A stretch of DNA of 44,225 nucleotides from a virus (lineage: Duplodnaviria > Heunggongvirae > Uroviricota > Caudoviricetes), in the IMG/VR virus record IMGVR_UViG_2744054854_000007. One strand, written 5' to 3'. Positions 1-44,225 of the stretch are shown here, in pieces. The position numbers and the translations under genes are program-made. Every line of letters begins with the position of its first letter. The stretch's first letter is position 1. Below the pieces are notes generated by a model. The model did not search any database, had not been told where the DNA came from, and worked only from the letters and a program-made list of their open reading frames with translations.

Positions 1-549
1 TCAGCTAGCTGGAAACTTTTTATACAGAGTTGAGAGCCCTACTCCATACGTTTTTGATACGCTTTGTCGTGATTCACCGGTTGCCATCCGCTCCCCCATT
101 TCCCGCCATTGCTCATCCGTGAACTTAGGCCTGCGACCACCAACTCGCCCTTTTGCCCTGGCTACGGCCAGCCCTGCTAAGGTACGTTCGCTATTAAGAT
201 CAGATTCATATTGTGCTGCGGAAAGGATGTTACGAAAGTTATAGCGGCCGCTGGCTGTTTTGAGATCCACGCCATCGGTAATACTGCGGAAGTTGATACC
301 CTTTTCCTGTAACTGCTGGAACATCAACAGCGCATGCAGAACGTTGCGGCCTATCCTGTCCAGCTTCCAGACCACCAGTTCATCCCCCGGCTGCATAGTG
401 GCGATGAGCCGTTTTAGAACCGGCCGATTCGATTTCCTCCCGCTGGCATGCTCTTCAAAAATTTTCTCACAACCCGCTGACTTGAGCGCCGTTAGTTGCA
501 ATTCAGTGTCCTGGTGGTTTGTTGATACTCGGGCATAACCGTAAATCAT
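1..549 (-). CDS. pin: Serine recombinase, DNA invertase of the Hin/Gin/Cin/Pin family
   Basis: Internal ATG at 549 of the 240-aa track ORF, preceded by GGAGA SD; product MIYGYARVST...VWKLDRIGRN...C-terminal HTH GVGLSTLYKKFP aligns by eye along its length with Hin; stop at 1-3. Confidence 0.9.
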   Translation of the reverse strand: MIYGYARVSTNHQDTELQLTALKSAGCEKIFEEHASGRKSNRPVLKRLIATMQPGDELVVWKLDRIGRNVLHALLMFQQLQEKGINFRSITDGVDLKTASGRYNFRNILSAAQYESDLNSERTLAGLAVARAKGRVGGRRPKFTDEQWREMGERMATGESRQSVSKTYGVGLSTLYKKFPAS

Positions 550-608
550 GGGATTTCTCCTGTTATGAAAACAGGAGAAACGGCGAAGCATCACCAGATT
601 TTTGATGG

Positions 609-634
609 TTATAAAAAAGGTTGGTTTGGGAGAA
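609..634. other. hix/gix-like recombination (crossover) site, left; core TT at 621-622
   Basis: TTATAAAAAAGG-TT-GGTTTGGGAGAA; outer half-site resembles hixL half TTATCAAAAACC (remembered consensus); inner half identical to inner half of right site. Confidence 0.7.
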
Positions 635-678
635 GGCTCTGCATTACCTGTTGGTGTGCCTGTTCCGTGGCCTTCAGC
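623..678. repeat. Inverted repeat (left copy) flanking the invertible tail-fibre segment
   Basis: About 56 bp reverse-complementary to 2729-2784 with one mismatch (T at 649 vs C); encodes the shared LGLGEGSALPVGVPVPWPSA block. Confidence 0.85.
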
Positions 679-1141
679 AACACCACCAACGGGATGGCTT
701 AAGTGCAACGGTGCACCGTTCACAGCATCCGAGTATCCAAAACTGGCACAGGCCTACCCGTCGCTTAAACTTCCAGATCTGCGCGGGGAGTTTATTCGTG
801 GATGGGATGACGGGCGAGGGATTGATGCAAGCCGCTCAATTATGAGTCAGCAGCAGGGTAGTTTGATGTCTATTTCTGTCTCAGCCAATACAAACGATGA
901 CAGAATTACTGTAATTCATGTCTATAACCCGCCGAGAGATTATGACGCTTTAATCAGCGGTGTAGGTATGGATTCAATGGCTGGTTATCATAAGGCATTT
1001 GATATCAGTAGTTTAGCATCCACTCTATCAACTCCAGACTTGACATCGCCTTTAGGTATGACTATCGCCGGACAGTTCGCTGTTGGCGGCGTGTCAAGAC
1101 CGCGCAACGTCGCATTTAACTACATCGTGAGGGCCGCATAA
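623..1141 (+). CDS. Alternative tail-fibre C-terminal segment (Sv'), not fused to the constant N-terminus in this orientation
   Basis: Track ORF 602-1141 begins with TTG/ATG inside the left recombination site; reading frame through the inverted repeat matches that of the active fibre; C-terminus RPRNVAFNYIVRAA conserved with active copy. Confidence 0.7.
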   Translation, partial: GLGEGSALPVGVPVPWPSATPPTGWLKCNGAPFTASEYPKLAQAYPSLKLPDLRGEFIRGWDDGRGIDASRSIMSQQQGSLMSISVSANTNDDRITVIHVYNPPRDYDALISGVGMDSMAGYHKAFDISSLASTLSTPDLTSPLGMTIAGQFAVGGVSRPRNVAFNYIVRAA

Positions 1142-1740
1142 TGGCGCAAGCTAAGCTAAATAGTAAATTTATCGCTACCGTGGCTGGGGATATCATCGTC
1201 TATAACTACAACGGTGAGACCCGTGAATATCAGTCCTCATCCGTTGAGTATCTTGCCGTAGGTGTTGGTATTCCAGCCTTATCCTGTATTGATGCGCCAG
1301 GAGAGCAAAAGGATGGTTTTGCCATTTGCCGTACATCAGATTTTAGCGCGTGGGAATATGTTCCCGATCATCGTGGTGAAACTATCTATAGCACCAAAAC
1401 TGGTGAAGCGTTTGTTGTCTCTTTGCCAGGTAACTACCCAAAAGAAACCACGACGCTGGCCCCTGCTACGCCATACGATACGTGGAACGGCAGCGAGTGG
1501 ATAACCGACACAAAAGAGAAACATGCTGCGGATGTGGTAAAGGCTGAACAGCAGAAAACCGCATTACTGGCGGAAGCGTCTGCAATCATCGCGCCATTGG
1601 CTGATGCTCAGGCTGGAGGCTACATCGACGATGCAGACGTGTCACGCCTGGCTGAGTGGCAACGGTACCGCTATAAACTGACTAAGGTTGATACCAGTAC
1701 CGCGCCAGACATTACTCTTCCACCGAAGCCGGAGGTTTAG
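1141..1740 (+). CDS. Tail-fibre assembly protein (alternative copy, Tfa')
   Basis: 199 aa, paralogous to the minus-strand copy (shared GETREY..SSSVEYLA.GVGIPALSCIDAPGE..GFAICRT..DTWNGSEW); start overlaps Sv' stop (TAATG). Confidence 0.8.
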   Translation: MAQAKLNSKFIATVAGDIIVYNYNGETREYQSSSVEYLAVGVGIPALSCIDAPGEQKDGFAICRTSDFSAWEYVPDHRGETIYSTKTGEAFVVSLPGNYPKETTTLAPATPYDTWNGSEWITDTKEKHAADVVKAEQQKTALLAEASAIIAPLADAQAGGYIDDADVSRLAEWQRYRYKLTKVDTSTAPDITLPPKPEV

Positions 1741-2323
1741 GCCATTTGATATTTGGTGCAGCGTCAGGGACGACAGCCTGCAATTCTTTTATGTAGGTCA
1801 GCCAGAGTATTAGGCTGGCCTTATCTTCATCACTGATAATCCCTAACTGTAGCTCCGTCTGCCACAGGCTGATCGTTGCATGTGCTTCAACTAAGAAAGC
1901 TGATTTTTGCTTTTCTGCAGCCTCTACGTCTGCGGTGTGTTGCTCGTCGATATTCGTAACCCACTCGCTGCCGTTCCACGTATCGTATGGCGTTAAAGGG
2001 GCTTGTGTCGTCGTATCTTTCGGATAATCACCCGGCTGGGAAATCGTGACTCGCTCACCTGTCTTCGTACTGTATACGGTTTCTCCGCGATGATCGGCGA
2101 GATACTCCCATGCGCTTAAGTCAAAGGTGCGACAAATGGCAAAGCCTTCTTTAACTTCTCCAGGAGCATCAATACATGATAAGGCTGGAATTCCTACACC
2201 TGCCGCCAAATACTCAACGGATGAAGAAAGATATTCACGGGTCTCACCATCGTAGTTAAACACCGTTATATCACCGGCCACTGTAGCAATATGCTCATTG
2301 TTTAATTTTGCCTTCGCCATCAT
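1712..2323 (-). CDS. Tail-fibre assembly protein (copy in expressed orientation)
   Basis: 203 aa; ATGA start/stop overlap with tail-fibre gene; converges on and overlaps the 3' end of the plus-strand paralog by 29 bp. Confidence 0.85.
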   Translation of the reverse strand: MMAKAKLNNEHIATVAGDITVFNYDGETREYLSSSVEYLAAGVGIPALSCIDAPGEVKEGFAICRTFDLSAWEYLADHRGETVYSTKTGERVTISQPGDYPKDTTTQAPLTPYDTWNGSEWVTNIDEQHTADVEAAEKQKSAFLVEAHATISLWQTELQLGIISDEDKASLILWLTYIKELQAVVPDAAPNIKWPKPPASVEE

Positions 2324-3069
2324 GCGGCCCTCACAATATAATTAAAGGCGATGTTACGTGGACGGTTTTCATTAGCTGTTGGCACGACACGAGAGGCGTC
2401 GAATCCAAGGTCATCGGTTTTGTCTATAGTAGTTGTGTTATTCGGCATTCTCGCTGATCGTGTTCCTGCATCGTAAAAAGCCCCTCTGATTGCATCAAAA
2501 GACATACCGATCCCGCCATCTGCGAATCCCTCAATATTTCTTATTGCATCCCCCTGTGAAGATAATAATTGTCGCCCGGCATCCACTCTACGTCCGTCAT
2601 CCCAGCCACGAATAAATTCACCGCGTAAATCAGGCAATTTATTTGTCGGGTAAGCCTTTGCCAGTTCCGGGAATTCTTCAGCAGAAAAAGCCGCACCATT
2701 GCATTTCAGCCAGCCTGTTGGCGGAGTGGCTGAAGGCCACGGAACAGGCACACCAACGGGTAATGCAGAGCCTTCTCCCAAACCAAGGTTTGTGAGAGCC
2801 GTAGAAATCGCCGCTGCACCATCTGATTTGATATCGGCAAATGGGTTTGCACGGCTCAGTGTGAGTTTTTGAATGGCTTTTAAAACCTGAGTCATATCGT
2901 TAATGTCGAGCGCCAATCCTGCTGACTCTACGATATGCGCTAACTCTTCCTGCATGGCATTAAACGCTGCTGCCCGCAGCCTCGTTGCGGCAATACCACC
3001 AGCAACACTTCCATCAGTATATTTGCCATCCTGCGTTGCAGTGGCTTCGACTTGCCCGATTCGGAGCAT
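2320..3069 (-). CDS. Tail fibre protein (constant N-terminus + variable C-terminus in current orientation)
   Basis: 249 aa; GAGGA SD before ATG 3069; N-terminal ~95 aa lie outside the invertible segment, C-terminus inside; short fibre like the e14 stf genes (remembered). Confidence 0.85.
   Translation of the reverse strand: MLRIGQVEATATQDGKYTDGSVAGGIAATRLRAAAFNAMQEELAHIVESAGLALDINDMTQVLKAIQKLTLSRANPFADIKSDGAAAISTALTNLGLGEGSALPVGVPVPWPSATPPTGWLKCNGAAFSAEEFPELAKAYPTNKLPDLRGEFIRGWDDGRRVDAGRQLLSSQGDAIRNIEGFADGGIGMSFDAIRGAFYDAGTRSARMPNNTTTIDKTDDLGFDASRVVPTANENRPRNIAFNYIVRAA
2729..2784. repeat. Inverted repeat (right copy) flanking the invertible segment
   Basis: Reverse complement of 623-678 with one mismatch. 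Confidence 0.85.
2773..2798. other. hix/gix-like recombination (crossover) site, right; core AA at 2785-2786
   Basis: TTCTCCCAAACC-AA-GGTTTGTGAGAG; about 19 of 26 positions match remembered hixL TTCTTGAAAACCAAGGTTTTTGATAA. Confidence 0.7.
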
Positions 3070-3120
3070 AGTTAATCCTCACTTAGTGTTAAGCGATAAA
3101 ATCAGAGGGGGAAATATCAG

Positions 3121-3714
3121 TTATGAATAATTGAAAATGATGTTCAGATGGGATGGGGCAATTTTGTTGATTGAACACTCCAGTTGTTTATTGCCCCACG
3201 ATGCGAGCGGATCTCCGCAGTAGGACGCGCCAGCAAGCGAATACTTGATCGTTGTTTGTGGCGCATTTATCCGCCAGGTAAATGGCCACTCGTCACCGTT
3301 AAGCGCATCACCGCATACTGACATGCCACTCATAGCGGGCCGGAACTGTGTGATAGTGATGGTATAACCAAGAGCTGCAGCCACCCGGATGTAATAATCG
3401 CGGTTCAGGCCGCCGGTGCTGATTAACTTTGCCACCACGGCGCGCTGGCGATCGCTGACGCCACCGGATTCACCAATCGCACAATCATCTGGTAACCCCA
3501 GAGAGCTTTCCCATTCTGACAACATTACCGTCGCTGTAGGGGGAAAAGCACCAGTAATCAGGCTTTGCGCATCGTTGTCAGAACGCTGAAACGCGCTGCC
3601 CAGTGCCCGTAATACCGCAGCCTGTACCGTTCTTTGCGACCGGGGCCACGCCCTGCCCGTCGGTAGCAGCGCACCAAGCGCACCGGCATAATCATTTTTT
3701 GAAAAGAGGCTCAT
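3121..3714 (-). CDS. Baseplate/tail protein, Mu gp48 (YmfQ, DUF2313)-like
   Basis: 197 aa; position immediately upstream of the tail fibre; family assigned from memory. Confidence 0.7.
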   Translation of the reverse strand: MSLFSKNDYAGALGALLPTGRAWPRSQRTVQAAVLRALGSAFQRSDNDAQSLITGAFPPTATVMLSEWESSLGLPDDCAIGESGGVSDRQRAVVAKLISTGGLNRDYYIRVAAALGYTITITQFRPAMSGMSVCGDALNGDEWPFTWRINAPQTTIKYSLAGASYCGDPLASWGNKQLECSINKIAPSHLNIIFNYS

Positions 3715-4853
3715 ACAAAATTCACCCCGCCAAGCACCGGAATTTCGCCAACAGCAAAGGTGATATTGGCCGTCGGAGAGTTAAGAATATAGCCCGTCGT
3801 GCCGCTAACACCGCCGATACTCCCGTTAATATCAGAGAGGTAAACTTTCCCGGAACCATCAGGGTTAGCTTCATCAAAAAACAGCGCCGTCAGCGCGTCT
3901 TTTATCCCCTGAACTGTGGTGCTGTCGGCATTTTTGATCCCAGAGATTTCAATATTGATGACTTTCTTGATCGGGGAACATACGAAAACAATGGCAGTGT
4001 CTGTCTGCTGCGGATAGATGTGGTCGGCGACAGCGAGCTGGTCTCCGGTGGCTTTAACAGCCCCCCAGTCCTCAAGTTGGGATATTCCGTCGGTACCGAC
4101 CGGAAACCCACCATTGTCATTCCGATCACACATGATATACACGCCAACGGTCCCGGCCCCGTTCAGACGCCGCTTTACCCACGCGCGGGTGACGCCCGAA
4201 ACCTCAAGCGCCCATTTTTTATAATCGGCGTCGCTTCCACCCTGAGGCGGATTCTGCCATGCCAGCAAGCCACGACTGCGAAAATCCTCTTCCGTTTCAA
4301 TATCGGCTCCGCCGGTCGCAGCGGACAGTAACGTTACCTGTGGATCCACGCCAGCAATATTCGCGTCCAGGGTCATTATGGTCCCGGCATCAGCGTTACC
4401 GCGCGCGCCTCCACCCGTTACATCACTGGTAATATCCGGCAGTATGGCCGTCACCGCGACGATACCAAATCCATCTGCCTGAATTTTAAGATCTGCATCC
4501 GTCCGGTACTGGTATCCGTCCCCGCGGTTAATGATCGAGCCAACAGGGATAATACAGTCAACACTGCCACTAGCCTGTACCGCAGGCGACTTCGCCGCTG
4601 CAGCTGGTTTTCTGAATACCTGCTTAAGGGCCATCCACCCGGCGAGATACTCATCGGTAGAGGTAAACGGGTTTGTCTGCAGGGCAATATAGTCAAGGTA
4701 GGCGTAATGCAGATGCCCCATCCCCGCATCCATGTCAGCCAGTACCTTCAGGTTCGCGAAGCGCAGGAGCGCACCAACATCCTCAAGCTCCGCCTGCATA
4801 AATTTCCGGTTTCCGTCGCGGAGTTCGCTCAGCGTCGGTCGTTTAAACGGCAT
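3711..4853 (-). CDS. Baseplate J-like protein (Mu gp47-like)
   Basis: Start taken at internal ATG 4853 (MPFKRPTLSEL), 1 nt after upstream stop; 380 aa; synteny in Mu-like baseplate cluster. Confidence 0.75.
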   Translation of the reverse strand: MPFKRPTLSELRDGNRKFMQAELEDVGALLRFANLKVLADMDAGMGHLHYAYLDYIALQTNPFTSTDEYLAGWMALKQVFRKPAAAAKSPAVQASGSVDCIIPVGSIINRGDGYQYRTDADLKIQADGFGIVAVTAILPDITSDVTGGGARGNADAGTIMTLDANIAGVDPQVTLLSAATGGADIETEEDFRSRGLLAWQNPPQGGSDADYKKWALEVSGVTRAWVKRRLNGAGTVGVYIMCDRNDNGGFPVGTDGISQLEDWGAVKATGDQLAVADHIYPQQTDTAIVFVCSPIKKVINIEISGIKNADSTTVQGIKDALTALFFDEANPDGSGKVYLSDINGSIGGVSGTTGYILNSPTANITFAVGEIPVLGGVNFV

Positions 4854-4854
4854 A

Positions 4855-5292
4855 TTAACGTTGCTCCCATATCCAGTAAAACCTGAATTCCTGCCAGTCC
4901 TTCCCCGGTGCCTGATAGCGGATAATGAGATTGAGCCGGTCAGGCAGGACGATCCTTGCAACAGGAATAACCTCGCTGACAACGCCATCAACCTTTAACC
5001 AGTTGAGCGCTTCACTCGAGTATTCCTCCGCTTTTTTTGCTACATCCGGGGTCAGTTTTTTCCGCCGTAGCAGCCACAGCCGGGATCCCAGTTGGGATTC
5101 CTCCCCGGAATCCCCCCACCAGCCGCGGCGATCGCTATCCTCATAATCATCGTCAGCGCGCGCCAGCCTGTCGGTAAACAGGCTGTCCAGTATTGCAGTC
5201 TGTAAATCGTTCCCCGTGGTGAGTTCACCCAGCCCTTTCTGCCAGTCAGCAAACATCTCATCCACATTCCAGAATGAAGCGATGTCACTCAT
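4855..5292 (-). CDS. Baseplate protein, Mu gp46-like
   Basis: 145 aa; synteny between gp45-like and J-like genes. Confidence 0.65.
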   Translation of the reverse strand: MSDIASFWNVDEMFADWQKGLGELTTGNDLQTAILDSLFTDRLARADDDYEDSDRRGWWGDSGEESQLGSRLWLLRRKKLTPDVAKKAEEYSSEALNWLKVDGVVSEVIPVARIVLPDRLNLIIRYQAPGKDWQEFRFYWIWEQR

Positions 5293-5873
5293 GTCACCTG
5301 ATCCTCTGTTTTTTGGCTGCGGATATTGTCATTGCCACTCTGGGCATTTTTAACCACATGATCATGGTCATTATGTGCATCCCGCAGCTCTTTCAGTGTT
5401 CGGGTATTGGTTTCACAGTTATCAACAATGTCACCCGTGCACCTCAGGATCGGGGTATTTGCAAGGATCCCCTGGCTGGCATTGATGGTCACGTTAGTGG
5501 CGTTATTGACCTCAACATTCTGGCCCTTTGCATCCAGGAAGATCCCCTTCTCCGTCAGGAGAATATTAAGGCCCCACTGGTTATACATGACCGTTTCGCC
5601 CGCTTTCAGGCCTGTATGACGGAACCCCTGATGGTTGGACGCAATTACCACCGCGCTGGAACGATCACCGCCAATAAAAGCCAGAACCACGTCAGTCCCT
5701 GACGGCAGGCCGGATGAAAAGCCAAATTCTGCCATCCGCGGAGCGCTGGCCACCTCCAGCGGAGTCTGGTACTGGATAGACTGCACCACCCCACCATCTT
5801 TCATAGCCGTGATCCGGCCAATCCCCAGCATGCCGGCGATCCTGGTCGCTGCATGTTTAAATAGTTGCTTCAT
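5289..5873 (-). CDS. Baseplate assembly/spike protein (Mu gp45-like, gpV family)
   Basis: 194 aa; ATGA overlap with neighbours; synteny. Confidence 0.65.
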   Translation of the reverse strand: MKQLFKHAATRIAGMLGIGRITAMKDGGVVQSIQYQTPLEVASAPRMAEFGFSSGLPSGTDVVLAFIGGDRSSAVVIASNHQGFRHTGLKAGETVMYNQWGLNILLTEKGIFLDAKGQNVEVNNATNVTINASQGILANTPILRCTGDIVDNCETNTRTLKELRDAHNDHDHVVKNAQSGNDNIRSQKTEDQVT

Positions 5874-6955
5874 GTATTGAATCCCGCCAGGTTCTGGTAG
5901 AAGGCATATGGCTGAACGGAGAATGCTTCAGGCGGCATCAGCGTCATGCGTGCATGGGTGCCGTAGTCATCGCGCATATAGGTGACTTCTGCCAGTAGCA
6001 ATTCAGTCTTCGGCAACCGTAAGGTGGGAAGATCAACGGGGATCAATGTGTTTGGTTCCCACAGTTTCCCGTCTTTATCCCGCCAGGAATCGATGGTTAC
6101 CGAGAGCTGTTTTGAACGTCCGTACCGCCGGTTCATTTCCCAGTCGATCGCACTTTGTGCCTGTTGAGTAGCCATCAGGGTACTTTCCACAATCGATATA
6201 TGTTTTCGGTACCGCATGCGGGCGGCCTCCGGATCTCTCGCCGTTGCCAGAGTCACAGCGTCATAGGCCGTATCAGGCGAATACCCTGCAATTGGAGAAA
6301 CGCTCATTGATACACCGACATAATCTGAAAACCTGTCAGCCATCGATTTGCGGTAGTATGCCTGCTCGACATTTACCCCTTCGGCTATCCCACTTGCCGC
6401 ACGACGTGTTCCCACCCGGGTCAGTAACAGGTTTCCATCGGGCTGATCGTAGTAAAGCAGAGCAGACCATCTGGCCACCCGATCGATGACTTCTTGCGGA
6501 GACTCACCCCAGTTCAGAGTGAACTGGGGTACCTTCACAAGTTCATCAACATCCGTGGTTACGGTGATGCCGTAGTAGGATGCCAGGCGAGAAGCAATTT
6601 CAAGCGCATTACTGGCATTGATGACGTTGTTAGGCCACTCGGCTGAGCAATCCACCAGGTCCTGACATTTGCTCCTGCCCGTGGCGCGGACCTCATGGCG
6701 GGAGCGCGATAGTGCGGGTTCCCAGTCATCAACATATCCCGTCAGTGTCAGATCATCTCCGATACGAACTTCACAAGACATTCCCTCTTCAACGAGTTGA
6801 CGATCTTCGTTGCCAGGGAAGTAATCCATTAGCCCAAGATCGAAATCAGAGGGAAAACGCTCAATACCCCGCGTTACCCGGACAGAATCCCACCCCTCGA
6901 TGATTTTGCCGTCGACCGTCAAAGAAACAACATCCAGATCGCTGTCTGCATTCAT
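5870..6955 (-). CDS. Baseplate hub protein (Mu gp44/P-like)
   Basis: 361 aa; ATGA overlap with upstream gene; synteny. Confidence 0.65.
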   Translation of the reverse strand: MNADSDLDVVSLTVDGKIIEGWDSVRVTRGIERFPSDFDLGLMDYFPGNEDRQLVEEGMSCEVRIGDDLTLTGYVDDWEPALSRSRHEVRATGRSKCQDLVDCSAEWPNNVINASNALEIASRLASYYGITVTTDVDELVKVPQFTLNWGESPQEVIDRVARWSALLYYDQPDGNLLLTRVGTRRAASGIAEGVNVEQAYYRKSMADRFSDYVGVSMSVSPIAGYSPDTAYDAVTLATARDPEAARMRYRKHISIVESTLMATQQAQSAIDWEMNRRYGRSKQLSVTIDSWRDKDGKLWEPNTLIPVDLPTLRLPKTELLLAEVTYMRDDYGTHARMTLMPPEAFSVQPYAFYQNLAGFNT

Positions 6956-8355
6956 TGCCTCAGTACCTTCATGGTTGTCGGCATAAACGCCGGATGCGGT
7001 ACGCGCGCTTCCTGTACCAGTTCATCTGCACGGGTGGCATCCTGGTATAATCGGTTTGCCAGCGTCAGCGCCGGAAGCGGCTGAGCGGTAGTAACCTGCA
7101 GAAGCTCGCTCAGACCAGAAGCACGCTCACTCATCGTAGAAAGGAATGCCGATCTGACGGCGAGAAGCGCGTTATACATATCATCGTCTGCGCGGTCTCC
7201 AGCCAGAACCAGCGCCGTATCAAGTTGCACAGAAACTCGTTGAGTTAACTCTTCTGCCTCGTCTGTACTGGCTGGTCTGGAGTCCGCAGCGGCACTGGTC
7301 ATGGCACCAGTACATAGCACAACAATCAGCGTGTTCATGGTCGCCGAAATCGCTTTGCTGCTGTCGGACTGCTGGTACTCCGTGCTGATTGAATTAGCCA
7401 GTTTTTCCAGCGCTGTGATTCGGTCATTAACGCTGCCGGCGCTGTTAAGAATTGCGTTTACCACGTCGGCGACGCCCTGGACAAACTCATCAGGTGTGTT
7501 GGAGCTGCTAAGCTGGCTCGACCTGTCGGTAACATTTTTCCGGTCCATTACCGACTGGGCTGTTACCTTGTCAGCCAGTGCTCTCTCATCATCCACATCA
7601 GCAACTGACGATTTGCCAGCAACAGCAGAGGAACTACCGCCCACAGAGCCTTTACTGTAACGTCCGTACCGGGTATTCCCGAACGTGGAGTTCAGGACAT
7701 TGCTGAGATTCGTGACCTGACTGATGGTGCTGTCAACCATGTTAGTCCAGAACGTGACCGTGCCTCTGATGGTGTTTATAGCCTGTGTGACACCGCGGAT
7801 TTCACTCTTAACTCTGGCAATCGTGCTCAGCACAGCAGTGCTGACCAGTTTCAGATAGTTGGTTTTCACCGTGGCGCCTGCAACGGTACTGCCCGTGACA
7901 GCAAACACTTTAAGCCCTGATTCAATTGCCATCAGGGTAAATTCAAATACTCGCCCGTTCTCCATCGAACCGGAAATACGCAAACCATTCTCAGGGATGG
8001 AAACCGTTAATTCGCCCAGTGTCGGATGGACAAGCGTACCGCTACCTTTTTGTTCACAGGCTTCAATCAGTGACTGGCGCTGCGTGATAGCATCGCCGCC
8101 GCCGTAAACCTGGCTGTTCTGGATCAAGAAACCGCGAATAACAAATCGCCGTGTTGCCCGCCCGATATCCTCTATCCAGGCTGTATCACGGTAGGGATAT
8201 TCATGTACCGCCTGGCGTCGGCCGTGGCTCCCTTCCTCAGCAACAATTGCAAATGGCACACCTCTGAATGAGCTGGGCCGTAACTGCCCCTGCCAGTCAT
8301 CGCTGGTATCTCCCCCCAAAAGAGAAGTTATTGCGTCCTGGATAATTGACGGCAT
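6952..8355 (-). CDS. DNA circularisation protein N-like (Mu gp43-like)
   Basis: ATG at 8355 with GGAGG SD (track ORF starts one codon earlier at GTG); N-terminal ...SSFRGVPFAIV... resembles Mu N N-terminus (memory). Confidence 0.7.
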   Translation of the reverse strand: MPSIIQDAITSLLGGDTSDDWQGQLRPSSFRGVPFAIVAEEGSHGRRQAVHEYPYRDTAWIEDIGRATRRFVIRGFLIQNSQVYGGGDAITQRQSLIEACEQKGSGTLVHPTLGELTVSIPENGLRISGSMENGRVFEFTLMAIESGLKVFAVTGSTVAGATVKTNYLKLVSTAVLSTIARVKSEIRGVTQAINTIRGTVTFWTNMVDSTISQVTNLSNVLNSTFGNTRYGRYSKGSVGGSSSAVAGKSSVADVDDERALADKVTAQSVMDRKNVTDRSSQLSSSNTPDEFVQGVADVVNAILNSAGSVNDRITALEKLANSISTEYQQSDSSKAISATMNTLIVVLCTGAMTSAAADSRPASTDEAEELTQRVSVQLDTALVLAGDRADDDMYNALLAVRSAFLSTMSERASGLSELLQVTTAQPLPALTLANRLYQDATRADELVQEARVPHPAFMPTTMKVLRQ

Positions 8356-35930: not shown

Positions 35931-36293
35931 ATGAAATCGGAATTATTTCATAGTGAAGCAAACTCCGAGATTATCACAGCGGATGAGTTCATTGATTTCA
36001 TAAATTCATTCAAAAAACCAATAACTTGCCAAATCTGCGGGAACCAGTCATGGTCTGTAGTTGGTGCCTTTGATCTTGATGTAGAAGAAAATCAGCCAAA
36101 ACATCATGTGATCGAAACACTTAGTTATGCACAATACAAACCTGATACTGATAGTGCTGTGACATATCCTGGCGGTATGCCACTATTTCGAATCACGTGT
36201 GATCACTGCGCACATGTACTGCTTTTTTCTTATAAAAAAGCCAGGACACTGATTAATAAAAGAAAAGAAGATCAAGGAGAGGATGGGAAGTGA
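35931..36293 (+). CDS. Zn-ribbon-like small protein, cargo gene 1 downstream of cI
   Basis: ATG 35931 (track ORF begins at TTG 35907); CQICG...CDHCAH cysteine pairs; AT-rich by eye. Confidence 0.5.
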   Translation: MKSELFHSEANSEIITADEFIDFINSFKKPITCQICGNQSWSVVGAFDLDVEENQPKHHVIETLSYAQYKPDTDSAVTYPGGMPLFRITCDHCAHVLLFSYKKARTLINKRKEDQGEDGK

Positions 36294-36922
36294 TGGGCCC
36301 ATCTCTCAAAGCTGTCCCAGACTGCGGTTCTGGCATTGATAAAGATGACCTGTACCCCAATGTTCAAAACAGACTACGCGTCGATAAAGAAGAAATGTAT
36401 ACTAACTTTATCAAATCAACAGATGAAGCTAATGAAACTGATGGGGGAAATGAAATGTCATCAGTTAGCCGTGAAGAAATGCAAGCACTTCTAGCTGCCA
36501 ATAAGGCGGAGATGGAGTCCATTGCATCTTCGATTAGAGCTGAAATGGCTTTGTCACGCGAGAATATGAACGTTCAGCTGGCATCGCTCAATTCATCTAT
36601 TAGCTCTATTTCTTCTAAAATTGAAGGGAAAATGGATAGCGTTGATGGGGATGTAAAAGCCATCAATGGCAAATTCGAAGGTATACAAGGGCAAATTACA
36701 GGAATAAACACTGCGATTGGCGGTATTCAATCAGGTATTTCCACTAGGCTTGCTATTTTTGGCGTTATCATTGCGGTTGTCGTTGCATTACCTAGTCTTG
36801 TTTCTGCCTTGAAGAGTGATCCGCCCGTAGTTCAACCAGTAGCGCAGCAACCTGTTATCATCCAATTACCTCAAGAACCAACTACTCCACGAGTACTTCA
36901 CCAACAGGAAAAATCAAAGTAA
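36293..36922 (+). CDS. Coiled-coil protein with C-terminal transmembrane anchor, cargo gene 2
   Basis: ATG 36293 overlapping upstream TGA; heptad-like Ser/Ile/Glu-rich region; hydrophobic LAIFGVIIAVVVALPSLVSAL near C-terminus then Pro/Gln-rich tail. Confidence 0.5.
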   Translation: MGPSLKAVPDCGSGIDKDDLYPNVQNRLRVDKEEMYTNFIKSTDEANETDGGNEMSSVSREEMQALLAANKAEMESIASSIRAEMALSRENMNVQLASLNSSISSISSKIEGKMDSVDGDVKAINGKFEGIQGQITGINTAIGGIQSGISTRLAIFGVIIAVVVALPSLVSALKSDPPVVQPVAQQPVIIQLPQEPTTPRVLHQQEKSK

Positions 36923-36945
36923 ACCGGCATTATGCCGGTTTTCAT
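36921..36945 (+). terminator. Terminator-like hairpin (plus strand) after cargo gene 2
   Basis: AACCGGC-attat-GCCGGTT then TTTCATATT; U-tract imperfect. Confidence 0.45.
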
Positions 36946-37482
36946 ATTCCTTTTCTCACCATAGCAGTGACATCCCACAACACTCCTTTGTGAATCACAT
37001 TTCCAACCGCGCGACGCTTAGTCTCCAAGCTATCTACTATCGCATCTCGACTTATCACCACACCGTTGATTATCTACTCGACAACTGCACCGCCAATCTC
37101 GCCAGCCATGAAAGCAGCGCGATCTTCCAGCAGCTCATCACGTGACATATCCATTCCTAAACCCATATCAATATCCCCGCCTGGTGTTTTTTTGAGCATA
37201 TCACGCATCTCATACAAAAATAAATCACTTTATAAATCAAATAAAAATCGGCAAAATCACAATATTATCGTTTAAGCGATTGATAAAATAAATCGCCTTA
37301 GCTATCATCACCCCATCGAGAAACACTAAGCGCATCAAGTTCAAACGTTCCGCTGGCCTGGCGACAAGGGCAAAGCACAGAGTGAGCTTCGCGGTGGTGA
37401 ACTGCAGAGTTAAAACGCTCAACTGTGAAGATCAGCACCACGGCGCCACCAGCGAAGTTCACTCAGAAAACTGGAGAACATC

Positions 37483-37689
37483 ATGGTTCATCAGCACTAC
37501 GGTACACAGACGGTAAACCGCGGCGCAGTTCAGCCGGGGATGCTCGTCAAACACAAAGACTCAACCTGGACGGCATCAGCTAACGCTCGCGGACGTTTGT
37601 ATCTGCATCGCGGCGTAGAAATGACTTACACCAAGGATTTGCTGGTTGAAGTTTATCTGAACGGTCTGGGGCATGGACTCAGCCACTAG
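37483..37689 (+). CDS. Hypothetical early protein (68 aa)
   Basis: ATG 37483 with GGAG SD; first gene of plus-strand early operon. Confidence 0.4.
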   Translation: MVHQHYGTQTVNRGAVQPGMLVKHKDSTWTASANARGRLYLHRGVEMTYTKDLLVEVYLNGLGHGLSH

Positions 37690-37700
37690 CGGAGGATGTC

Positions 37701-37862
37701 ATGTTAGACAAGAAATGCGGATATTGCGGCAAGCCGGTTAAAACGGAGGAAGTAATCAAGAGCACCCTTCTCTATCGCAACGGCTCACAGCTGGCGCGCA
37801 AAGAAAAAGAGTATTGCTCCAAACGTTGCGCTTCGCACGACCAGATGGCTCACGAAGGCTAA
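37701..37862 (+). CDS. Small Cys4 zinc-ribbon protein (53 aa), not in ORF track
   Basis: ATG 37701 six nt after GGAGG; CGYCGK...CSKRCA cysteine pairs; stop TAA 37860-37862. Confidence 0.45.
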   Translation: MLDKKCGYCGKPVKTEEVIKSTLLYRNGSQLARKEKEYCSKRCASHDQMAHEG

Positions 37863-38001
37863 CGTAAAACCCGCGCAAGGCGGGATCTACGTCCGGTGGT
37901 ACCGACCAAAGTTACACCGGAAACAACATTAAAACCAAAGTTAACCCAATGGGCGCTATCAATGGTCCGGGGATTCTAACACCCAAAAATGAGGATCTCA
38001 C

Positions 38002-41000
38002 ATGGAATTCTTTAATGTGGTTAAAGCCACTCAGAAATCCGGAAAGCAAGATGCAGTGGTCTGGTTCACTGCTAAAACCGAGGCTCGCGCCAATCTGATG
38101 CTGGATGTTGCGCTGGAAGATGCAGGTATCGAAACAGGTCGGGGTAAGGACTACGCCAAACCGATTCGCACTGATTTCCCAGTTGTCGACGGCCTGCCGA
38201 AAGAAGGTGAAGTTGATTTTACCTGGTGTGATCGCTACGAGCTTCAGGACGATGGGCGCACCTGGCTGCCAAAAGCCGCTGGTGTGTCTACTGGTTCCGT
38301 TTACGCCCCCTCCACACCTACTCCGACCGTAATCGTTGAAGATGCGACTGCGTCCGAAATTGTCCCGGTTGAAAACCGTACTCCAGCGGTCCGCTTTGCC
38401 GTCCATCTGATGAACGATAAATACCAAACCCACGTCACTAAAGAGCAGCAGTTGGCTGCCAGCGAAATGTCACTGGATGAAGGCAATACATATCTCCATA
38501 GCCTGCTTGTGGCAAGGAACGATGTGCCCGCGACCGCCAAACTCAGCCTGAATGCTGAGTGGAAAATGATTCGGGCGGTTAAGGACATTTTCACACCAGA
38601 CGAAGAGCACGAACCAAGATTGATCGCTGCATTCATGTCTGACTGGGTGAACACCGATGCCGGTGACCGCAATCAACTGGTAGAAGACTGGCGCAGTGGT
38701 AAGTTGCAGTTGCTCAAAACTGAAACCAGCAACGCTGCTGACGTTACAACGGGTCAAGATCTCACTGTTGAGGACGGTATCCAGACCGACGAGAACGGCC
38801 GGGCAGAAGGTGGCGTCGTTGATGGTGAAGTCGATACCGAAGAGCAATCCCAGCAGACACAGCAACCGAACCTGATCGTTGTTGCCACCCTGCCATTCCG
38901 CCAGCGCGTACTGGCTCAGTTCATCGGTGATGGTGAATATCTCTATCACATCGACGCAGGGCAGAAAAATGAGATTGTCCGCCTTGAGATGGACACCGAT
39001 GACGCGTACGTCCAGAACCTGCTGCTGGCAGCTGAGAATGTGGAAGCATTCAAAAAAGCCATTGAGCACGATATTCATAAAGTCGTGAATGCCGTTAAGA
39101 AAGTCTTCCCTGTCGATGGAAAAATCCCTGAACTCGCAACCTTAATCCAGTTTTTGAAATTGTGGTTCGCTACAGATCACATCGACCGCGGTATCCTCGT
39201 TCGCGAATGGGCCGCCGGTAATCGCATCAGTAGTGTGCAGCGTACTGATTCCGGCACTAATGCCGACGGCGGTTACGTCACTGACCGTGGACCTGACGCA
39301 CACCACACACTGGACACTCTCGATTTAGAGATTGCGTGTGCCCTTCTGCCTATGGACTTCAACCACTTCGAGATCCCGGGCAGCATTCTTCGTCGCGCTA
39401 AAGAAATCGTGACCAAAAAAGAAGAACCATGGAAATCATGGAGCAACATCCTGCGCAATCAGCCAGGTGTTCTGGGTGTTAACCGCACGGCTATTTTTAA
39501 CCTGGTACGTATCGCACCGGAAAATATTCATTTAACTCCTGTCGCTCACCTGGAATTTGTTAACCAGACCATGACAGCCGCGTTCAATTCCGCGGTCGAG
39601 TTATTGCCGTTGCATGAGGCTGAACCCGCAGCACAGGAAATTCCCCAACCTGAAGGTAAGGAGTCTCCGCGCAAATCCTTCTGCACTCACGAAGAGAACC
39701 TGCAACGCGTGCGTGAAGAAGGAGCACGCCGCCGCGCAGAGGAAGCGGCAGCACAACCGCAGAAAGTCGAACAAGAACTGGTTAAAAATGTCGGCAACGG
39801 AATATTCGACGTTACGGCTTTGCTGCAGAACTCAGCAACTCATGGCACGAAAAAGGCTACGGAGACCACCAGCAATGTGCAGGTTCAAGAAACTGTCAGT
39901 GATGAAAAACAAGCTGGTGATGAAGTACAGCCAGGCGAAAGCAGTCTGGAGTCTGGTGAAGAGTCAGATACCAGCCAGAAGGACGATGTAAACCAGAATA
40001 CGGATTCTGTCGCCAAAAATAGCGATTCTGTAAGCCAAACCGAACCAGTTGCAGCACAAACCGAGCCAGAAGCGCAATCTGACGAACCAGCTGTTGTTTA
40101 TCCCGCTTATTTCGAGCCAGGCCGCTATGAAGGGCTGCCAAACGAGGTTTACCACGCCGCCAACGGCATCAGCTCAACCCAGGTGAAAGATGCGCGCGTT
40201 TCGCTGATGTACTTCAATGCGCGCCACGTAGAGAAAACCATCGTCAAAGAGCGCTCAGCGGTGCTGGACATGGGCAACTTGGTGCATGCGCTGGCGTTGC
40301 AGCCTGAACTACTGGACGCAGAATTCAGCGTTGAACCGGTGATCCCTGAAGGCGCATTCACAACGGCCGCGACCCTGCGCGCCTTTATCGATGAGCACAA
40401 TGCCAGCCTGCCGGCGCTGCTGTCTGCCGACGACATCAAGGTGTTACTGGAAGAGTACAACGCCACCCTGCCGCCGCAGGTTCCGCTTGGCGCTAACCTG
40501 GAAGAAACGGCACAGAACTATATGGCGCTGCCAGCTGACTTCCAGCGTATTGATGGTGACCAGAAGCAGACGGCGACGGCAATGAAGGCATGCATTAAAG
40601 AGTACAACGCCACCCTGCCGCCGCCGGTTAAAACCAGCGGCAGCCGTGACGCGCTGCTGGAGCAGTTGGCAATCATCAACCCTGACCTTGTGGCTCAGGA
40701 AGCACAGAAACCGGCACCACTGAAAGTGTCCGGTACCAAAGCAGACATGATCCAGGCCGTGAAGGCAGTCAAACCAGATGCCGTATTTGCCGACGAACTG
40801 CTGGATGCCTGGCGCGATAACCCGGAAGGAAAAGTGCTGGTCACCCGCCAGCAGCTGAGCACCGCGCTGAATATTCAAAAAGCGCTTCTGGCACACCCGA
40901 CCGCCGGCATGCTGCTGACCCACCCTAGCCGAGCCGTTGAGGTGAGCTACTTTGGTTTTGACGAGGAGACGGGCTTGGAAGTTCGTGTGCGCCCTGACCT

Positions 41001-41391
41001 TGAGATCGACCTGGATGGCGTGCGTATAGGTGCAGACCTGAAAACCATCAGCATGTGGAATGTTAAGCAGGAAAGCCTGCGCGCCAGGCTACACCGGGAA
41101 ATTATTGAACGTGATTATCACCTGAGCGCGGCTATGTACTGCGAAACCGCAGCGCTGGATCAGTTCTTCTGGATTTTCGTCAACAAAGACGAGAACTACC
41201 ACTGGATCGCCATCATCGAGGCATCCGCTGAACTACTGGAGCTGGGTATGCTCGAGTACCGCAAAGCGATGCGCAATATCGCAACCGGATTCGACACAGG
41301 TGAATGGCCAGCGCCAATCACTGCTGACTACACCGACGAACTGAACGACTTCGACCTGCGCCGCCTTGAAGCGCTGCGTACTCAGGCATAA
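38002..41391 (+). CDS. RecE-like exonuclease VIII (large N-terminal extension, C-terminal nuclease domain)
   Basis: 1129 aa; ATG 38002 with GAGGA SD; C-terminal region reminiscent of RecE; immediately upstream of annealase gene. Confidence 0.65.
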   Translation: MEFFNVVKATQKSGKQDAVVWFTAKTEARANLMLDVALEDAGIETGRGKDYAKPIRTDFPVVDGLPKEGEVDFTWCDRYELQDDGRTWLPKAAGVSTGSVYAPSTPTPTVIVEDATASEIVPVENRTPAVRFAVHLMNDKYQTHVTKEQQLAASEMSLDEGNTYLHSLLVARNDVPATAKLSLNAEWKMIRAVKDIFTPDEEHEPRLIAAFMSDWVNTDAGDRNQLVEDWRSGKLQLLKTETSNAADVTTGQDLTVEDGIQTDENGRAEGGVVDGEVDTEEQSQQTQQPNLIVVATLPFRQRVLAQFIGDGEYLYHIDAGQKNEIVRLEMDTDDAYVQNLLLAAENVEAFKKAIEHDIHKVVNAVKKVFPVDGKIPELATLIQFLKLWFATDHIDRGILVREWAAGNRISSVQRTDSGTNADGGYVTDRGPDAHHTLDTLDLEIACALLPMDFNHFEIPGSILRRAKEIVTKKEEPWKSWSNILRNQPGVLGVNRTAIFNLVRIAPENIHLTPVAHLEFVNQTMTAAFNSAVELLPLHEAEPAAQEIPQPEGKESPRKSFCTHEENLQRVREEGARRRAEEAAAQPQKVEQELVKNVGNGIFDVTALLQNSATHGTKKATETTSNVQVQETVSDEKQAGDEVQPGESSLESGEESDTSQKDDVNQNTDSVAKNSDSVSQTEPVAAQTEPEAQSDEPAVVYPAYFEPGRYEGLPNEVYHAANGISSTQVKDARVSLMYFNARHVEKTIVKERSAVLDMGNLVHALALQPELLDAEFSVEPVIPEGAFTTAATLRAFIDEHNASLPALLSADDIKVLLEEYNATLPPQVPLGANLEETAQNYMALPADFQRIDGDQKQTATAMKACIKEYNATLPPPVKTSGSRDALLEQLAIINPDLVAQEAQKPAPLKVSGTKADMIQAVKAVKPDAVFADELLDAWRDNPEGKVLVTRQQLSTALNIQKALLAHPTAGMLLTHPSRAVEVSYFGFDEETGLEVRVRPDLEIDLDGVRIGADLKTISMWNVKQESLRARLHREIIERDYHLSAAMYCETAALDQFFWIFVNKDENYHWIAIIEASAELLELGMLEYRKAMRNIATGFDTGEWPAPITADYTDELNDFDLRRLEALRTQA

Positions 41392-41396
41392 GGGGA

Positions 41397-42515
41397 ATGA
41401 TGATGGAAAACACGAATATCGTAACCGCTGAACAGCAGACTCCAAACACGATCTCAGCCAGCAATGCCATTTTCAACGTGCAGGCTTTAACCCAGCTTCA
41501 GTCTGTCGCCGGGTTGATGGCACAGGCAGCCGTAACGGTGCCTGAGCACCTCCGCGGCAATCCGGCAGACTGCATGGCCATCATCATGCAGGCGATGCAG
41601 TGGGGTATGAACCCTTACGCCGTGGCGCAAAAGACGCACCTGGTTAACGGTGTCCTGGGATACGAAGCGCAACTGGTTAATGCGGTGATCTCCAGCTCAA
41701 ACGCCATCGTTGGCCGCTTTCACTATGAGTACGAGGGCGACAGGTCGAAATGTGCCAGCAGCCGCGAGATAACCGTTAAAAAGCCTGCGAAAGGTGGCGG
41801 GACGTACGACAAGAAAGAAATGGTACGCGGTTGGGAAAGTGCTGATGAACAAGGACTGTCGGTACGGGTAGGTGCCGTTATTCGCGGTGAAAGTGATATC
41901 ACCTGGGGAGAGCCTGTTTTCCTCTCCAGCGTAATCACACGTAATTCTCCACTTTGGGTATCAAACCCGAAACAGCAGATCGCTTATCTGGCACTCAAAT
42001 ACTGGGCGCGCCTATATTGCCCTGCAGTTGTTCTTGGTGTGTACACCCCTGATGAGATTGAACAGCGCACAGAAAAAGAGATCAACCCAACGCCGCAACG
42101 CGTTAGCCTGGCTGATATCTCAGGTGACACCGTCACAACCACGCAAAGCGCACAGGAATCGTCGGTAAATGTCGACTCTCTTGCCGATGATTTCCGCGAA
42201 CGCATCGAATCTGCTCAGGACGTGGATAGCGCCAAATCGCTGCGTGCCGACATTGAAACGGCGAAAGCTACGCTGGGATCCGCACTATTCACCGAGCTGA
42301 AAAACAAAGCCGTAAAGCGTTATTACCTAGTGGATGCACGCAACAAGGTTGAGGAGGCTATTAAATCCCTGCCCCAGCCCGACGAGCCGCATGCAGCCGA
42401 ACGGTTCGCTGAAGCCGAGCGCATGCTTGCATCTTCAAAGCGTCACTTAGGCGATGAACTGCACGATCAATTCAGCATCACCCTGGCGGATATGAAACCG
42501 GAATACGTGGCCTGA
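41397..42515 (+). CDS. Single-strand annealing protein (Red-beta/RecT superfamily)
   Basis: 372 aa; by-eye similarity to lambda Bet in two blocks (...AIIMQAMQWGMNPY... and ...NPKQQIAYLALKYWARL...). Confidence 0.75.
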   Translation: MMMENTNIVTAEQQTPNTISASNAIFNVQALTQLQSVAGLMAQAAVTVPEHLRGNPADCMAIIMQAMQWGMNPYAVAQKTHLVNGVLGYEAQLVNAVISSSNAIVGRFHYEYEGDRSKCASSREITVKKPAKGGGTYDKKEMVRGWESADEQGLSVRVGAVIRGESDITWGEPVFLSSVITRNSPLWVSNPKQQIAYLALKYWARLYCPAVVLGVYTPDEIEQRTEKEINPTPQRVSLADISGDTVTTTQSAQESSVNVDSLADDFRERIESAQDVDSAKSLRADIETAKATLGSALFTELKNKAVKRYYLVDARNKVEEAIKSLPQPDEPHAAERFAEAERMLASSKRHLGDELHDQFSITLADMKPEYVA

Positions 42516-42553
42516 CGAGACCGGGAGGGGTAACCCTCCCTCAAGGAGATTAT

Positions 42554-42796
42554 ATGCGACTGATCAATCGAGGAAGTAAGCAATCACCTTTAGCTCGCCA
42601 AGCATGCGACATCGCGCTGGCAGCTCACTTGCAAACATATGGCGACTATGGGCGAAGCAAGATGAAAGAGACTTATACGGTGAAGGTTGAAGGCGTGAAA
42701 GTCTGGGTGGAGGTGGTGAACCGAAAGGCGAGCTACGTGGCCACAGCGATGACCGGCATGCGCCGTCTCCGCTCCCTGCCCGGGCAGGTTGGTTGA
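42554..42796 (+). CDS. Hypothetical protein (80 aa)
   Basis: ATG 42554 with AAGGAG SD. Confidence 0.45.
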   Translation: MRLINRGSKQSPLARQACDIALAAHLQTYGDYGRSKMKETYTVKVEGVKVWVEVVNRKASYVATAMTGMRRLRSLPGQVG

Positions 42797-42837
42797 AAAA
42801 GATTTTGAATGGCCCGAACGGGCAACTGGAGAGAGCT

Positions 42838-43035
42838 ATGGATGATATTTTGGTAACGTCAGACCTGACCAGTCGCTACAAAATTTCACGCAAAACCCTT
42901 TGGTCATGGCAAAGTGCAGACACAATGCCTCGGGGCTTCGTATGCCCGTTCCCACCCCCTGACTGGCCCGGCAACCCTAACCGCTGGCGCTCTGAGTCAA
43001 TCAAAGAGTGGGAGGATAAAAAGAAGATAAATTAA
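42838..43035 (+). CDS. xis: Excisionase/AlpA-like small DNA-binding protein
   Basis: ATG 42838 with GGAGAG SD (track ORF starts at upstream TTG); ...[22 protein letters not shown]... HTH; stop overlaps integrase stop. Confidence 0.55.
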
Positions 43036-44225
43036 CTGAAGGGCTCTCCGATGATCTCTTCAAGATGGCTCTGCCAAACGCGGAGCCAGTGTTTCTGATC
43101 ATCGATATAGTCATGAAGGTTGTAATGCGCCATAACCCCCACCATCTGATGCCCGAGCAGCTTTTCAATTACGTGCGGCGGGCAACCTAACTCAGAGAGA
43201 TTTGTGGCTATCGTCCGCCTCATATCATGAAGCGACCACTCTGCCATACCTATTCCATTCCAAATAGAACGGGCGTAATTGGATGCCACAGGTGAATGAA
43301 CGGGCGAATCTTTGATCCCGCCATCAATTTTACGTTGTGAAGTCACCAGGTGATTGGTGTTTATTTTCTTGAGGTGATTTCTGACCAGGTTAACGGCGGC
43401 GTCTGAGAGTCCCCTTCTAATATGTACCCGAGTTTTATAACTGCCCGCAGGCACGACCCACTCATTATCATCCAATCGAAACCATGATCTCTCACTAAGT
43501 CGAATCTCAGCCGTACGGCATCCGGTAAGCATAATAAATTTCACCAGGAAAACGGACTCTATCGACATATGGCTTTTCAACCACTGATAGATTTTGCGCA
43601 GATCGTCATCGTCCATCCTGCGAGTTCTCTTTTTAGGCTTTTGCCCGACATCAGATGGCAGTAATCCCTCGAGTGGGTTTGAGGCGATCACACTTCTGTT
43701 AACGCAGAACCTAAACGCCCGTTTGCACAGCGAAAGCATGTAATGAGCCATCACCCTGCTTTCTATAGAATCGAAGACGTTGATCCAGTGCATTTTCGCT
43801 GTGTTATCGACTTTGACATTCTTCATCGGTTCGGCGATATGTTTCTCAAACACCTGGCGATAGTAATCGACTTTAACTAGCCCGTTAGCGATACAGTGCC
43901 TTTCAATCCAGTAATTGAACGCTTCGGCAACGGACATCGCTTCCTGTCGGGTCTGCTTATCCAGCTTCACCTGCTCTCGCGGATCCAGTCCCTCAGTTAA
44001 CCAGTTTCTGAATTGTTGGCGACGCTCTCTTGCCTGGGTGATACTCATTGCAGGATAATCACCAACATTGAGTTTTACCGCTTTACCGGCCCAGCGATAC
44101 CGATAGAAAAATGATATTTTTCCGGCCTGGCTGATTCTGGCGTTGAGCCCGTGCGAATCAGAAATAATCTCGATATCATCTCTTTTCTTGCCGAGCGCCT
44201 TCCTGAGCTTTGTGTCGGTGATCAT
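43032..44225 (-). CDS. int: Tyrosine recombinase (phage integrase); start coincides with window edge, may be truncated
   Basis: 397 aa; N-terminal arm-binding-like ...[10 protein letters not shown]...; C-terminal ...LHDMRRT... and ...HYNLHDY... catalytic-region motifs. Confidence 0.85.

Follow-up and report, generated by a model that had tools for sequence, protein, structure and literature searches.

Two temperate phages with contractile tails, both studied experimentally, are the closest described relatives of the virion genes analysed in this work, i.e., Citrobacter phage phiNP (OR565852; PMC6456863) and Serratia phage vB_SspM_BZS1 (BZS1; MT843275; PMC7556043). Each has a genome of about 45 kb with a lambdoid gene order, and phiNP integrates at ssrA (PMC6456863). 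A Mu-type contractile tail is likewise combined with lambdoid early genes in phages SfV and SfI, with which the e14 element of Escherichia coli, integrated in icd (PMC6379469), has already been placed (PMC3636060). Here, the IMG/VR record IMGVR_UViG_2744054854_000007 was analysed; the whole stretch of 44,225 bases is called the window, all coordinates refer to it, and amino acid (aa) identities to phages were mostly obtained with tblastn. We consider it very likely that the window is essentially the whole genome of a temperate phage, complete in appearance and integrated in E. coli, and that this phage is a lambdoid myovirus drawing its modules from three known pools. As a mosaic of such modules it is an ordinary one. 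The initial annotation had recognized a mosaic, apparently intact prophage combining a lambda-type head and lambdoid regulation with a Mu-type tail and a Pin switch, and this description is borne out by a single consistent gene map, on which all of these modules are found.

The first of the pools concerns the virion. Twenty-four consecutive virion genes are collinear with those of phiNP (24 of 24 matched in order, 33–93% aa identity) and, where a counterpart exists, with those of BZS1 (34–92%); the tail fibre and its chaperone have no counterpart in BZS1. Identity to phiNP amounts to 93% for the tube protein, 89% for the capsid, 84% for the portal, 72% for the sheath, 58–73% for the neck genes and 51–80% for the baseplate, and that to BZS1 to 92%, 81% and 64% for the capsid, portal and sheath, respectively. 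The head and packaging proteins share mostly 65–92% with phiNP and BZS1 (47–92% in all), with the exception of the two terminase subunits, i.e., TerL (only 48% to phiNP and 49% to BZS1) and TerS (33% and 34%). A 12-nt sequence upstream of TerS, GCATTGCGCGCC, agrees at every base with the cohesive end that was experimentally predicted for BZS1 (PMC7556043), and the gene upstream of cos is also conserved in both phages. Beyond this block the resemblance is lost: the attachment sites differ (ssrA in phiNP, an attP of its own in BZS1), the immunity, replication and recombination genes of both phages are unrelated to those of the window, neither of them has an annotated invertase or invertible cassette, and in both the fibre genes are followed by cargo of the acetyltransferase or toxin-antitoxin kind.

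The module running from cos/terminase to the baseplate corresponds to the virion block of phiNP/BZS1-type temperate myoviruses, in which lambda-type packaging and head genes (Nu1/A/W/B/C/D/E analogues, with 12-nt cohesive ends) are joined to a Mu-type contractile tail. Lambda itself has cohesive ends and analogues of the gpA-type terminase, gpW, portal B, protease C, decoration protein and capsid E in the same order, as well as CI, Cro, cII-like, Q, nin and lysis genes. However, the aa identity to lambda E, C, B and A is only 28–38%, the tail of the window element is contractile, RecE/RecT stand in place of Exo/Bet, and the replication genes are of the DnaT/DnaC type. The Pfam domains Phage_cap_E, GpA_ATPase and GpA_nuclease (the latter two in TerL) were recognized in the head and packaging block, together with further PHROG assignments. 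With Mu, in turn, the window shares collinear homologues of gp38, L, gp43, gp44 and gp46–gp48. In the tblastn comparison the gp48, gp47, gp46, gp44 and gp43 homologues of the baseplate were collinear with their Mu counterparts at 30–39% identity, and the gp45 homologue gave no Mu match; the sheath protein is 37% identical to Mu gpL and 41% to that of SfV. The gp43 homologue matches phrog_184 and the tape measure phrog_2276. An invertible fibre/chaperone cassette with an adjoining Din-family invertase (the G segment and Gin in Mu), placed in the same order at the end of the tail genes, is common to both as well. Unlike Mu, the element has no transposition genes, its head, packaging, regulation and integration genes are lambdoid, the identities in the tail do not exceed the 30–39% given above, and the fibre has only 249 aa, compared with 504 aa in Mu S.

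Integration, recombination, a part of nin and the pin segment constitute the second pool, that of lambdoid phages of the phi80 group (mEp237, HK225 and phi80). Four segments of the window (1–635, 28261–29873, 34215–34727 and 37343–44225) show 92–99.6% nucleotide (nt) identity to mEp237. Int, Xis, RecT and Pin are identical in aa sequence to those of this phage, as are all products of the genes located at 37483–44225 with the exception of RecE (89%), while the nin portion at 28242–29836 reaches 89–100% aa identity and the int-xis segment 99.4–99.9% nt identity to phi80. In total, pin, the attP-side sequences, int, xis, DUF4060, recT, recE, kil, ydaE, the cII-like gene and part of nin are shared with the group at 92–100% nt identity, along with a 17-bp att core and the chromosomal site. 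In contrast to the window element, these phages are siphoviruses, having a virion block with a lambda/N15-type non-contractile tail, and their immunity and replication genes are different. The identity stops at about 632–635, which is where the left crossover site of the Pin switch lies, and at about 28260.

The window extends from the stop codon of pin to the start codon of the tyrosine integrase gene. As attP is flanked by pin and int in phi80-group phages, the window is a prophage cut just inside both of its ends. In the nearest complete genome, that of E. coli 2018-10-1CC (99.93% identity over positions 2593–44225 and 100% over 1–627 of the window), the copy is located between yciI and kch, i.e., in the phi80 attachment site, and the 17-bp phi80-type att core AGAACACTTTCTTAAAT is present as direct copies on both of its sides. 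Related elements occupy the same site in strains EC529 and PCP06171. Since the integration segment belongs to the phi80 group, the element would use the phi80 integrase and the yciI/kch site. Comparison of the sister prophages revealed the pattern of swapped blocks usual for lambdoid phages, comprising the contents of the invertible segment, the lysis/Q, the replication and nin-proximal, and the immunity regions, and parts of recE.

The gene map follows the order typical of lambdoid temperate phages (int, xis, recombination, cI, cro, cII, replication, nin, Q, lysis, packaging, head and tail), and the CI-like repressor has the features of an SOS-cleavable S24 protein, namely an Ala-Gly site, the serine of a GDSM motif and a lysine further downstream. 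Two perfect ATCGCnnnnGCGAT palindromes (35129–35142 and 35156–35169) and a third, partial copy are situated in the cI-cro intergenic region. In the regulatory scheme proposed here, the cleavable repressor, the divergent cro and the repeated operators would maintain lysogeny, and Q would turn on the late genes.

The third pool is the Pin (Din-family) cassette at the end of the tail genes. The invertase, which contains the YARVST motif with its serine in the N-terminal part, is 51% identical to Mu Gin and lies beside a segment bounded by inverted-repeat arms (600–828 and 2579–2807). Within these arms, two 26-bp crossover sites are inverted to each other and have a common half-site TTCTCCCAAACC and central dinucleotide. 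Reversal in silico between the centres of the sites places the alternative C-terminus in frame behind the constant 95-aa N-terminal part of the fibre, so that a 267-aa fibre replaces the 249-aa one and is followed by the other chaperone. The Pin switch is intact and looks functional, and it would be expected to work as the G segment of Mu and the P segment of e14 do, flipping a segment of 2.2 kb (622–2785); the exchange of the C-terminal, receptor-binding part of the fibre and of the chaperone might in this way switch the host range. The boundaries of the cassette deserve a separate comment. The near-identity to the phi80 group (99.7% to HK225 over 1–632) ends within the left crossover site, and between the two sites sister prophages have entirely different contents, although their identity exceeds 99% in the remainder; hence the crossover sites coincide with boundaries of module exchange. 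In strain 2018-10-1CC (positions 2039–5800 of this locus, L001, corresponding to 628–2592 of the window), the invertible segment has given way to 3.1 kb with a partial integrase, DinI, a capsid fragment, an acyltransferase and a different fibre tip with its chaperone. The breakpoint is inside the left crossover site, after GGTTT; as only one intact crossover site is left, the switch of this copy should be locked.

At least 80% of the structural half of the window is present in 28 of 5426 complete E. coli genomes, and relatives of the portal protein occur in many genera of Enterobacterales. The virion block (about 7.4–23.8 kb of the window) was found to be 98–99.6% identical in nt sequence in Kluyvera georgiana, K. 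sichuanensis and Citrobacter youngae (loci L016, L053 and L059). Such near-identity across genera points to recent transfer between them and argues that phages with this virion module are, or very recently were, mobile. The gene content, the homologies and the structure of the sites can be read directly from the DNA; taking the cross-genus near-identity together with the intact genes and sites, an active phage is the most likely reading, and the element is probably inducible, capable of forming particles and of inverting its segment. The element is also a probably active phage by which one set of virion genes is moved among Escherichia, Kluyvera and Citrobacter.

Several observations weigh against the interpretation of the window as a complete and active phage genome. 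The exact combination of modules is undescribed as a phage: among about 50,700 phage records of the collection, coverage of either half of the window nowhere exceeds about a third, and none of them matches the virion block closely in DNA. The att cores fall just outside the window and were seen only in the near-identical copy. Two open reading frames (ORFs), both accessory and the only ones seen in this state, are disrupted (31601–32078 and 36942–37148). No N-type antiterminator, which lambda has, was identified in the gene map, made without a search aimed at N. Finally, because TerL and TerS diverge from those of BZS1 despite the same cos sequence, the packaging specificity is not proven.

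Some of these points would also be expected of a cryptic prophage inactivated recently, complete in appearance and unable to excise, replicate or assemble. In addition to the two pseudogenes in accessory regions and the lack of a described phage with exactly this genome, the sister prophage of 2018-10-1CC, in which the left crossover site is broken and the invertible segment has been replaced by foreign DNA, demonstrates that decay and rearrangement do occur in this family. We nevertheless regard recent inactivation as rather unlikely, since all 24 virion genes match those of functional phages over their full length, cos, the operators and the catalytic residues of the repressor are intact, both crossover sites are preserved in the window, and the near-identical virion modules of other genera imply recent mobility.

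It should be stressed that the relationship to e14 is much more limited than initially proposed. All the landmarks on which the proposal was based (pin, short stf/tfa genes, ymfQ, a J-like gene and a CI-like repressor) are indeed present in the window, and an intact member of the e14 lineage, showing e14 as it was before its decay together with its cargo slots, would account for several similarities. The J-YmfQ-Stf-Tfa-Tfa'-Stf'-Pin genes have the same order and orientation in both elements, the fibre and chaperone parts are 50–60% identical to StfE and TfaE (with 94.6% DNA identity over 205 nt of the fibre), and in both, lambdoid early genes accompany a tail of the Mu type. The one specific link left is the crossover half-site TTCTCCCAAACC, which is the same as in both e14 sites. 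The pin-controlled invertible fibre segment as such is not specific for the lineage, as Mu has it too.

Alignment of the window to e14, a check suggested together with the original claim, revealed essentially no synteny beyond generic modules, an outcome named at that time as speaking against the claim. At the nt level, only the fibre/pin cassette aligns to e14 and SfV, and the DNA similarity to e14 is confined to positions 359–2847 (69–95%). Only seven of 63 window proteins match e14, all within one block of 4.8 kb and at 31–60% identity: Pin at 55%, the fibre parts at 50–60%, the chaperones at 56%, and, as the only baseplate proteins, YmfQ at 35% and J at 31%, i.e., no better than in the comparisons with SfV (32% for J and 35% for YmfQ) or Mu (30% and 31%). 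With tblastn and a cutoff of E ≤ 0.01, the e14 integrase, excisionase, repressor, Cro, YmfL/M and the terminase and portal remnants all failed to match the window. The repressor and Cro are thus not of the SfV type, the integrase is that of mEp237 rather than IntE, and the copy in the nearest genome is located at the phi80 site, not in icd. The possibility that e14 aaaE, ymfR and beeE are counterparts of the lambda-type terminase, gpW and portal of the window was considered and rejected, as there was no match; aaaE is a terminase of the SfV type. The terminase, portal and capsid of the window are of the lambda A/B/E type and without a match in SfV or e14, whereas the e14 terminase remnant matches neither the window nor lambda.

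By contrast, e14 proteins are 89–100% identical to those of SfV (cI/YmfK 100%, cro/YmfT 98%, terminase AaaE 96%, J/JayE 97% and YmfQ 98%), in accordance with the literature grouping of e14 with SfV and SfI. Descent of the window element within the e14 lineage is consequently very improbable; on these comparisons, e14 is a distant cousin only, and its close intact relatives, i.e., SfV-type phages, are already known. The expected value of the window for understanding the ancestry of e14 has to be given up as well, because this ancestry is already explained by SfV-type phages and the window does not share the core genes of e14. The same is true of the cargo slots of e14: the corresponding positions next to int and after pin contain no annotated gene in the nearest genome, with 119 bp between pin and yciI and about 190 bp between int and the att core. 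The meaning of the element for e14 is, in consequence, small.

The weakest of the alternatives, in which the window would be a chimeric assembly or would comprise two prophages, side by side or one within the other, instead of a single genome, could be suspected from the abrupt change of the nearest relative at about 635 and about 28260 and from the partial second integrase beside pin in strain 2018-10-1CC, and it was rejected as hardly credible, given the occurrence of each module exactly once along the canonical lambdoid order, the single pair of att cores around the element in a closed genome, the same arrangement in independent complete genomes, and a size of 44 kb that resembles that of phiNP and BZS1. 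The complete-looking mosaic phage genome is therefore retained as the preferred reading. It offers a clean example of module exchange between a phi80-like siphovirus group and a phiNP/BZS1-like myovirus group, with one of the module junctions placed exactly at a site-specific recombination site. The features distinguished within the window are summarized in Table 1.

Table 1. Features of the 44,225-base window and the evidence used for their assignment
Feature	Coordinates	Strand	Basis or remarks
Pin-type serine DNA invertase, 182 aa	1–549	-	Resolvase and HTH_7 Pfam domains
Silent alternative tail fibre C-terminal part	602–1141	+	50% aa to e14 StfE
Left crossover site, pix-type, TTATAAAAAAGG-TT-GGTTTGGGAGAA	611–636	.	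Inverted copy of right site
Alternative tail fibre assembly chaperone tfa'	1141–1740	+	56% aa to e14 TfaE; within invertible segment
Tail fibre assembly chaperone tfa, expressed orientation	1712–2323	-	Caudo_TAP Pfam domain; 56% aa to e14 TfaE
Short tail fibre, 249 aa	2320–3069	-	Collar Pfam domain
Right crossover site	2773–2798		Within short tail fibre gene
Mu-type baseplate (gp48/YmfQ, gp47/J, gp46, gp45, gp44, gp43 homologues)	3121–8355	-	
YmfQ/Mu gp48	3121–3714	-	Phage_Mu_Gp48 Pfam domain
J/gp47	3711–4853	-	
Tape measure, tail chaperone, tube, sheath, DUF2635 (Mu gp38-like) protein	8699–13120	-	
Neck/head-tail connectors, three genes	13124–14410	-	Hc1 head closure phrog_82, phrog_6774, phrog_24496
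Lambda-type head/packaging (E-type capsid, decoration, scaffold-like, S49 protease, portal, gpW, gpA-type TerL, TerS)	14412–21961	-	
cos region	21961–22153	-	Upstream of TerS
Seven ATGTCCCA repeats	21961–22102		Between 12-nt cos and TerS start
12-nt cos sequence GCATTGCGCGCC	22142–22153		
Slot between lysis genes and cos (167-aa and 212-aa proteins, two small ORFs)	22252–24198	.	PHROGs only
Secreted 167-aa protein	22252–22755	+	Signal peptide read from sequence; opposite strand, beside cos
212-aa protein	22766–23404	-	74% aa to phiNP, 70% to BZS1
Lysis cassette (two holins, GH19 endolysin, Rz and Rz1 spanins)	24261–25990	-	phrog_198, 217, 1026, 1275; RefSeq names on 99.9% identical copy
Moron: SDH-type Clp-fold serine protease and 66-aa ORF	26085–27197	-	PF01972, E = 2e-21; no PADLOC match
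isrJ-like short structured leader RNA	27468–27540	-	Rfam RF01393, 58.7 bits; directly downstream of Q
Antiterminator Q	27556–28245	-	RefSeq name on near-identical copy
nin-type region (YlcG, RusA, YbcO, DUF1367, theta-like, Ren-like, frameshifted methyltransferase, small ORFs)	28242–32386	-	
Secreted 113-aa protein, nin-proximal	30783–31124	-	Clear N-terminal signal peptide, no family assignment
Class II serine-type tRNA-like gene, GAU anticodon	31287–31378	+	ARAGORN; Rfam tRNA, 46.4 bits
Terminator-like hairpin of tRNA-like gene	31380–31405		
Frameshifted SAM-dependent methyltransferase	31601–32078	-	
Replication genes (DnaT-domain initiator, DnaC-like ATPase)	32405–34104	-	PF17948; RefSeq names
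Immunity switch: cII-like/YdaT (-), cro-like (-), operators, S24 CI (+)	34272–35886	.	phrog_163
S24 CI-like repressor	35203–35886	+	Peptidase_S24 and HTH_3 domains
Two-gene cassette in rexAB position downstream of cI	35931–36922	+	phrog_4293, phrog_5820; no PADLOC match
Small ORF with internal stop (pseudogene)	36942–37148	-	
Leftward early and integration genes (kil, ydaE, recE, recT, DUF4060, xis, int)	37483–44225	.	
xis	42838–43035		
int	43032–44225	-	Arm-binding and Phage_integrase domains

The accessory genes occupy ordinary lambdoid slots, i.e., those between the lysis genes and cos, between Q and the holins, in the vicinity of nin, and after cI in the position of rexAB. The suggestion that they include defence cargo found no support in the comparison of 10 cargo proteins with PADLOC models, which gave no significant match (the sole hit, to a type I specificity subunit, had E = 0.007). 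Searches of the cargo against Pfam and NCBIfam indicated, apart from the SDH protease domain, only weak noise from coiled coils (MakE-like, E = 1.8e-4; Baculo_PEP_C, below cutoff), and for the slot at 22252–24198 no Pfam, NCBIfam or PADLOC family was above threshold. Ren-like and Kil proteins are also encoded in the window. This uncharacterised cargo provides candidates for screens of exclusion functions.

One of these candidates is the cassette downstream of cI. Its first gene encodes a 120-aa protein with a CxxC...CxxC arrangement; its second encodes a coiled-coil protein of 209 aa, in which a glycine-rich membrane segment is located at the C-terminus and for which there is no Pfam, NCBIfam or PADLOC assignment. 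The family of the 209-aa protein is limited to Enterobacterales. In phage HK542 and in the two prophages examined, one from Yersinia and one from Klebsiella, a homologue immediately follows an unrelated S24 repressor, and another is present in the immunity region of HK244. The small upstream partner is not conserved between the loci compared, and for this reason the term two-gene system is a positional statement only. AlphaFold2 predicted one long helix for the 209-aa protein (predicted local distance difference test (pLDDT) 59, predicted template modelling score (pTM) 0.24), a model of too low quality to be informative. By analogy with RexAB, it may tentatively be proposed that the cassette encodes an exclusion or abortive-infection system expressed in the lysogen, with a tail-anchored coiled-coil membrane effector and a variable zinc-ribbon-like partner acting as a possible sensor; we would put this forward as a possibility rather than as an expectation.

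The tRNA-like gene is antisense to the early genes around it and has a 21-nt variable arm and a serine-like D arm. Its closest phage matches are tRNA-Ser genes, and its GAU (Ile) anticodon is one substitution away from the Ser anticodon GCU. There is a G.A mismatch at pair 2:71, the discriminator is U, and CCA is not encoded. Only 11 of the 5426 complete E. coli genomes carry the gene at 100% identity. The alternatives are a pseudo-tRNA in the course of decay and a mis-sense tRNA; function of the gene as a recoding tRNA is less likely than the Rex-like role suggested for the cI-linked cassette.

Homologues of the SDH-type protease with 35–43% aa identity are scattered among Shewanella Mu-like, Porphyromonas and Gordonia phages, and its slot between Q and the holins is the position of Shiga-toxin genes in other lambdoid phages. 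The adjacent isrJ-like match occupies the expected position of the lambdoid late-promoter leader and terminator; apart from this leader and the tRNA, nothing was indicated in the window by an Rfam scan that was also run at a permissive threshold. Iteron-like tandem repeats are present within the replication genes (33626–33657 and 33937–33966). Finally, between the tape-measure and gp43 genes there is a 343-bp spacer (8356–8698), absent in EC529 and phiNP, which holds a 48-aa ORF with a hydrophobic segment (8419–8565, minus strand).

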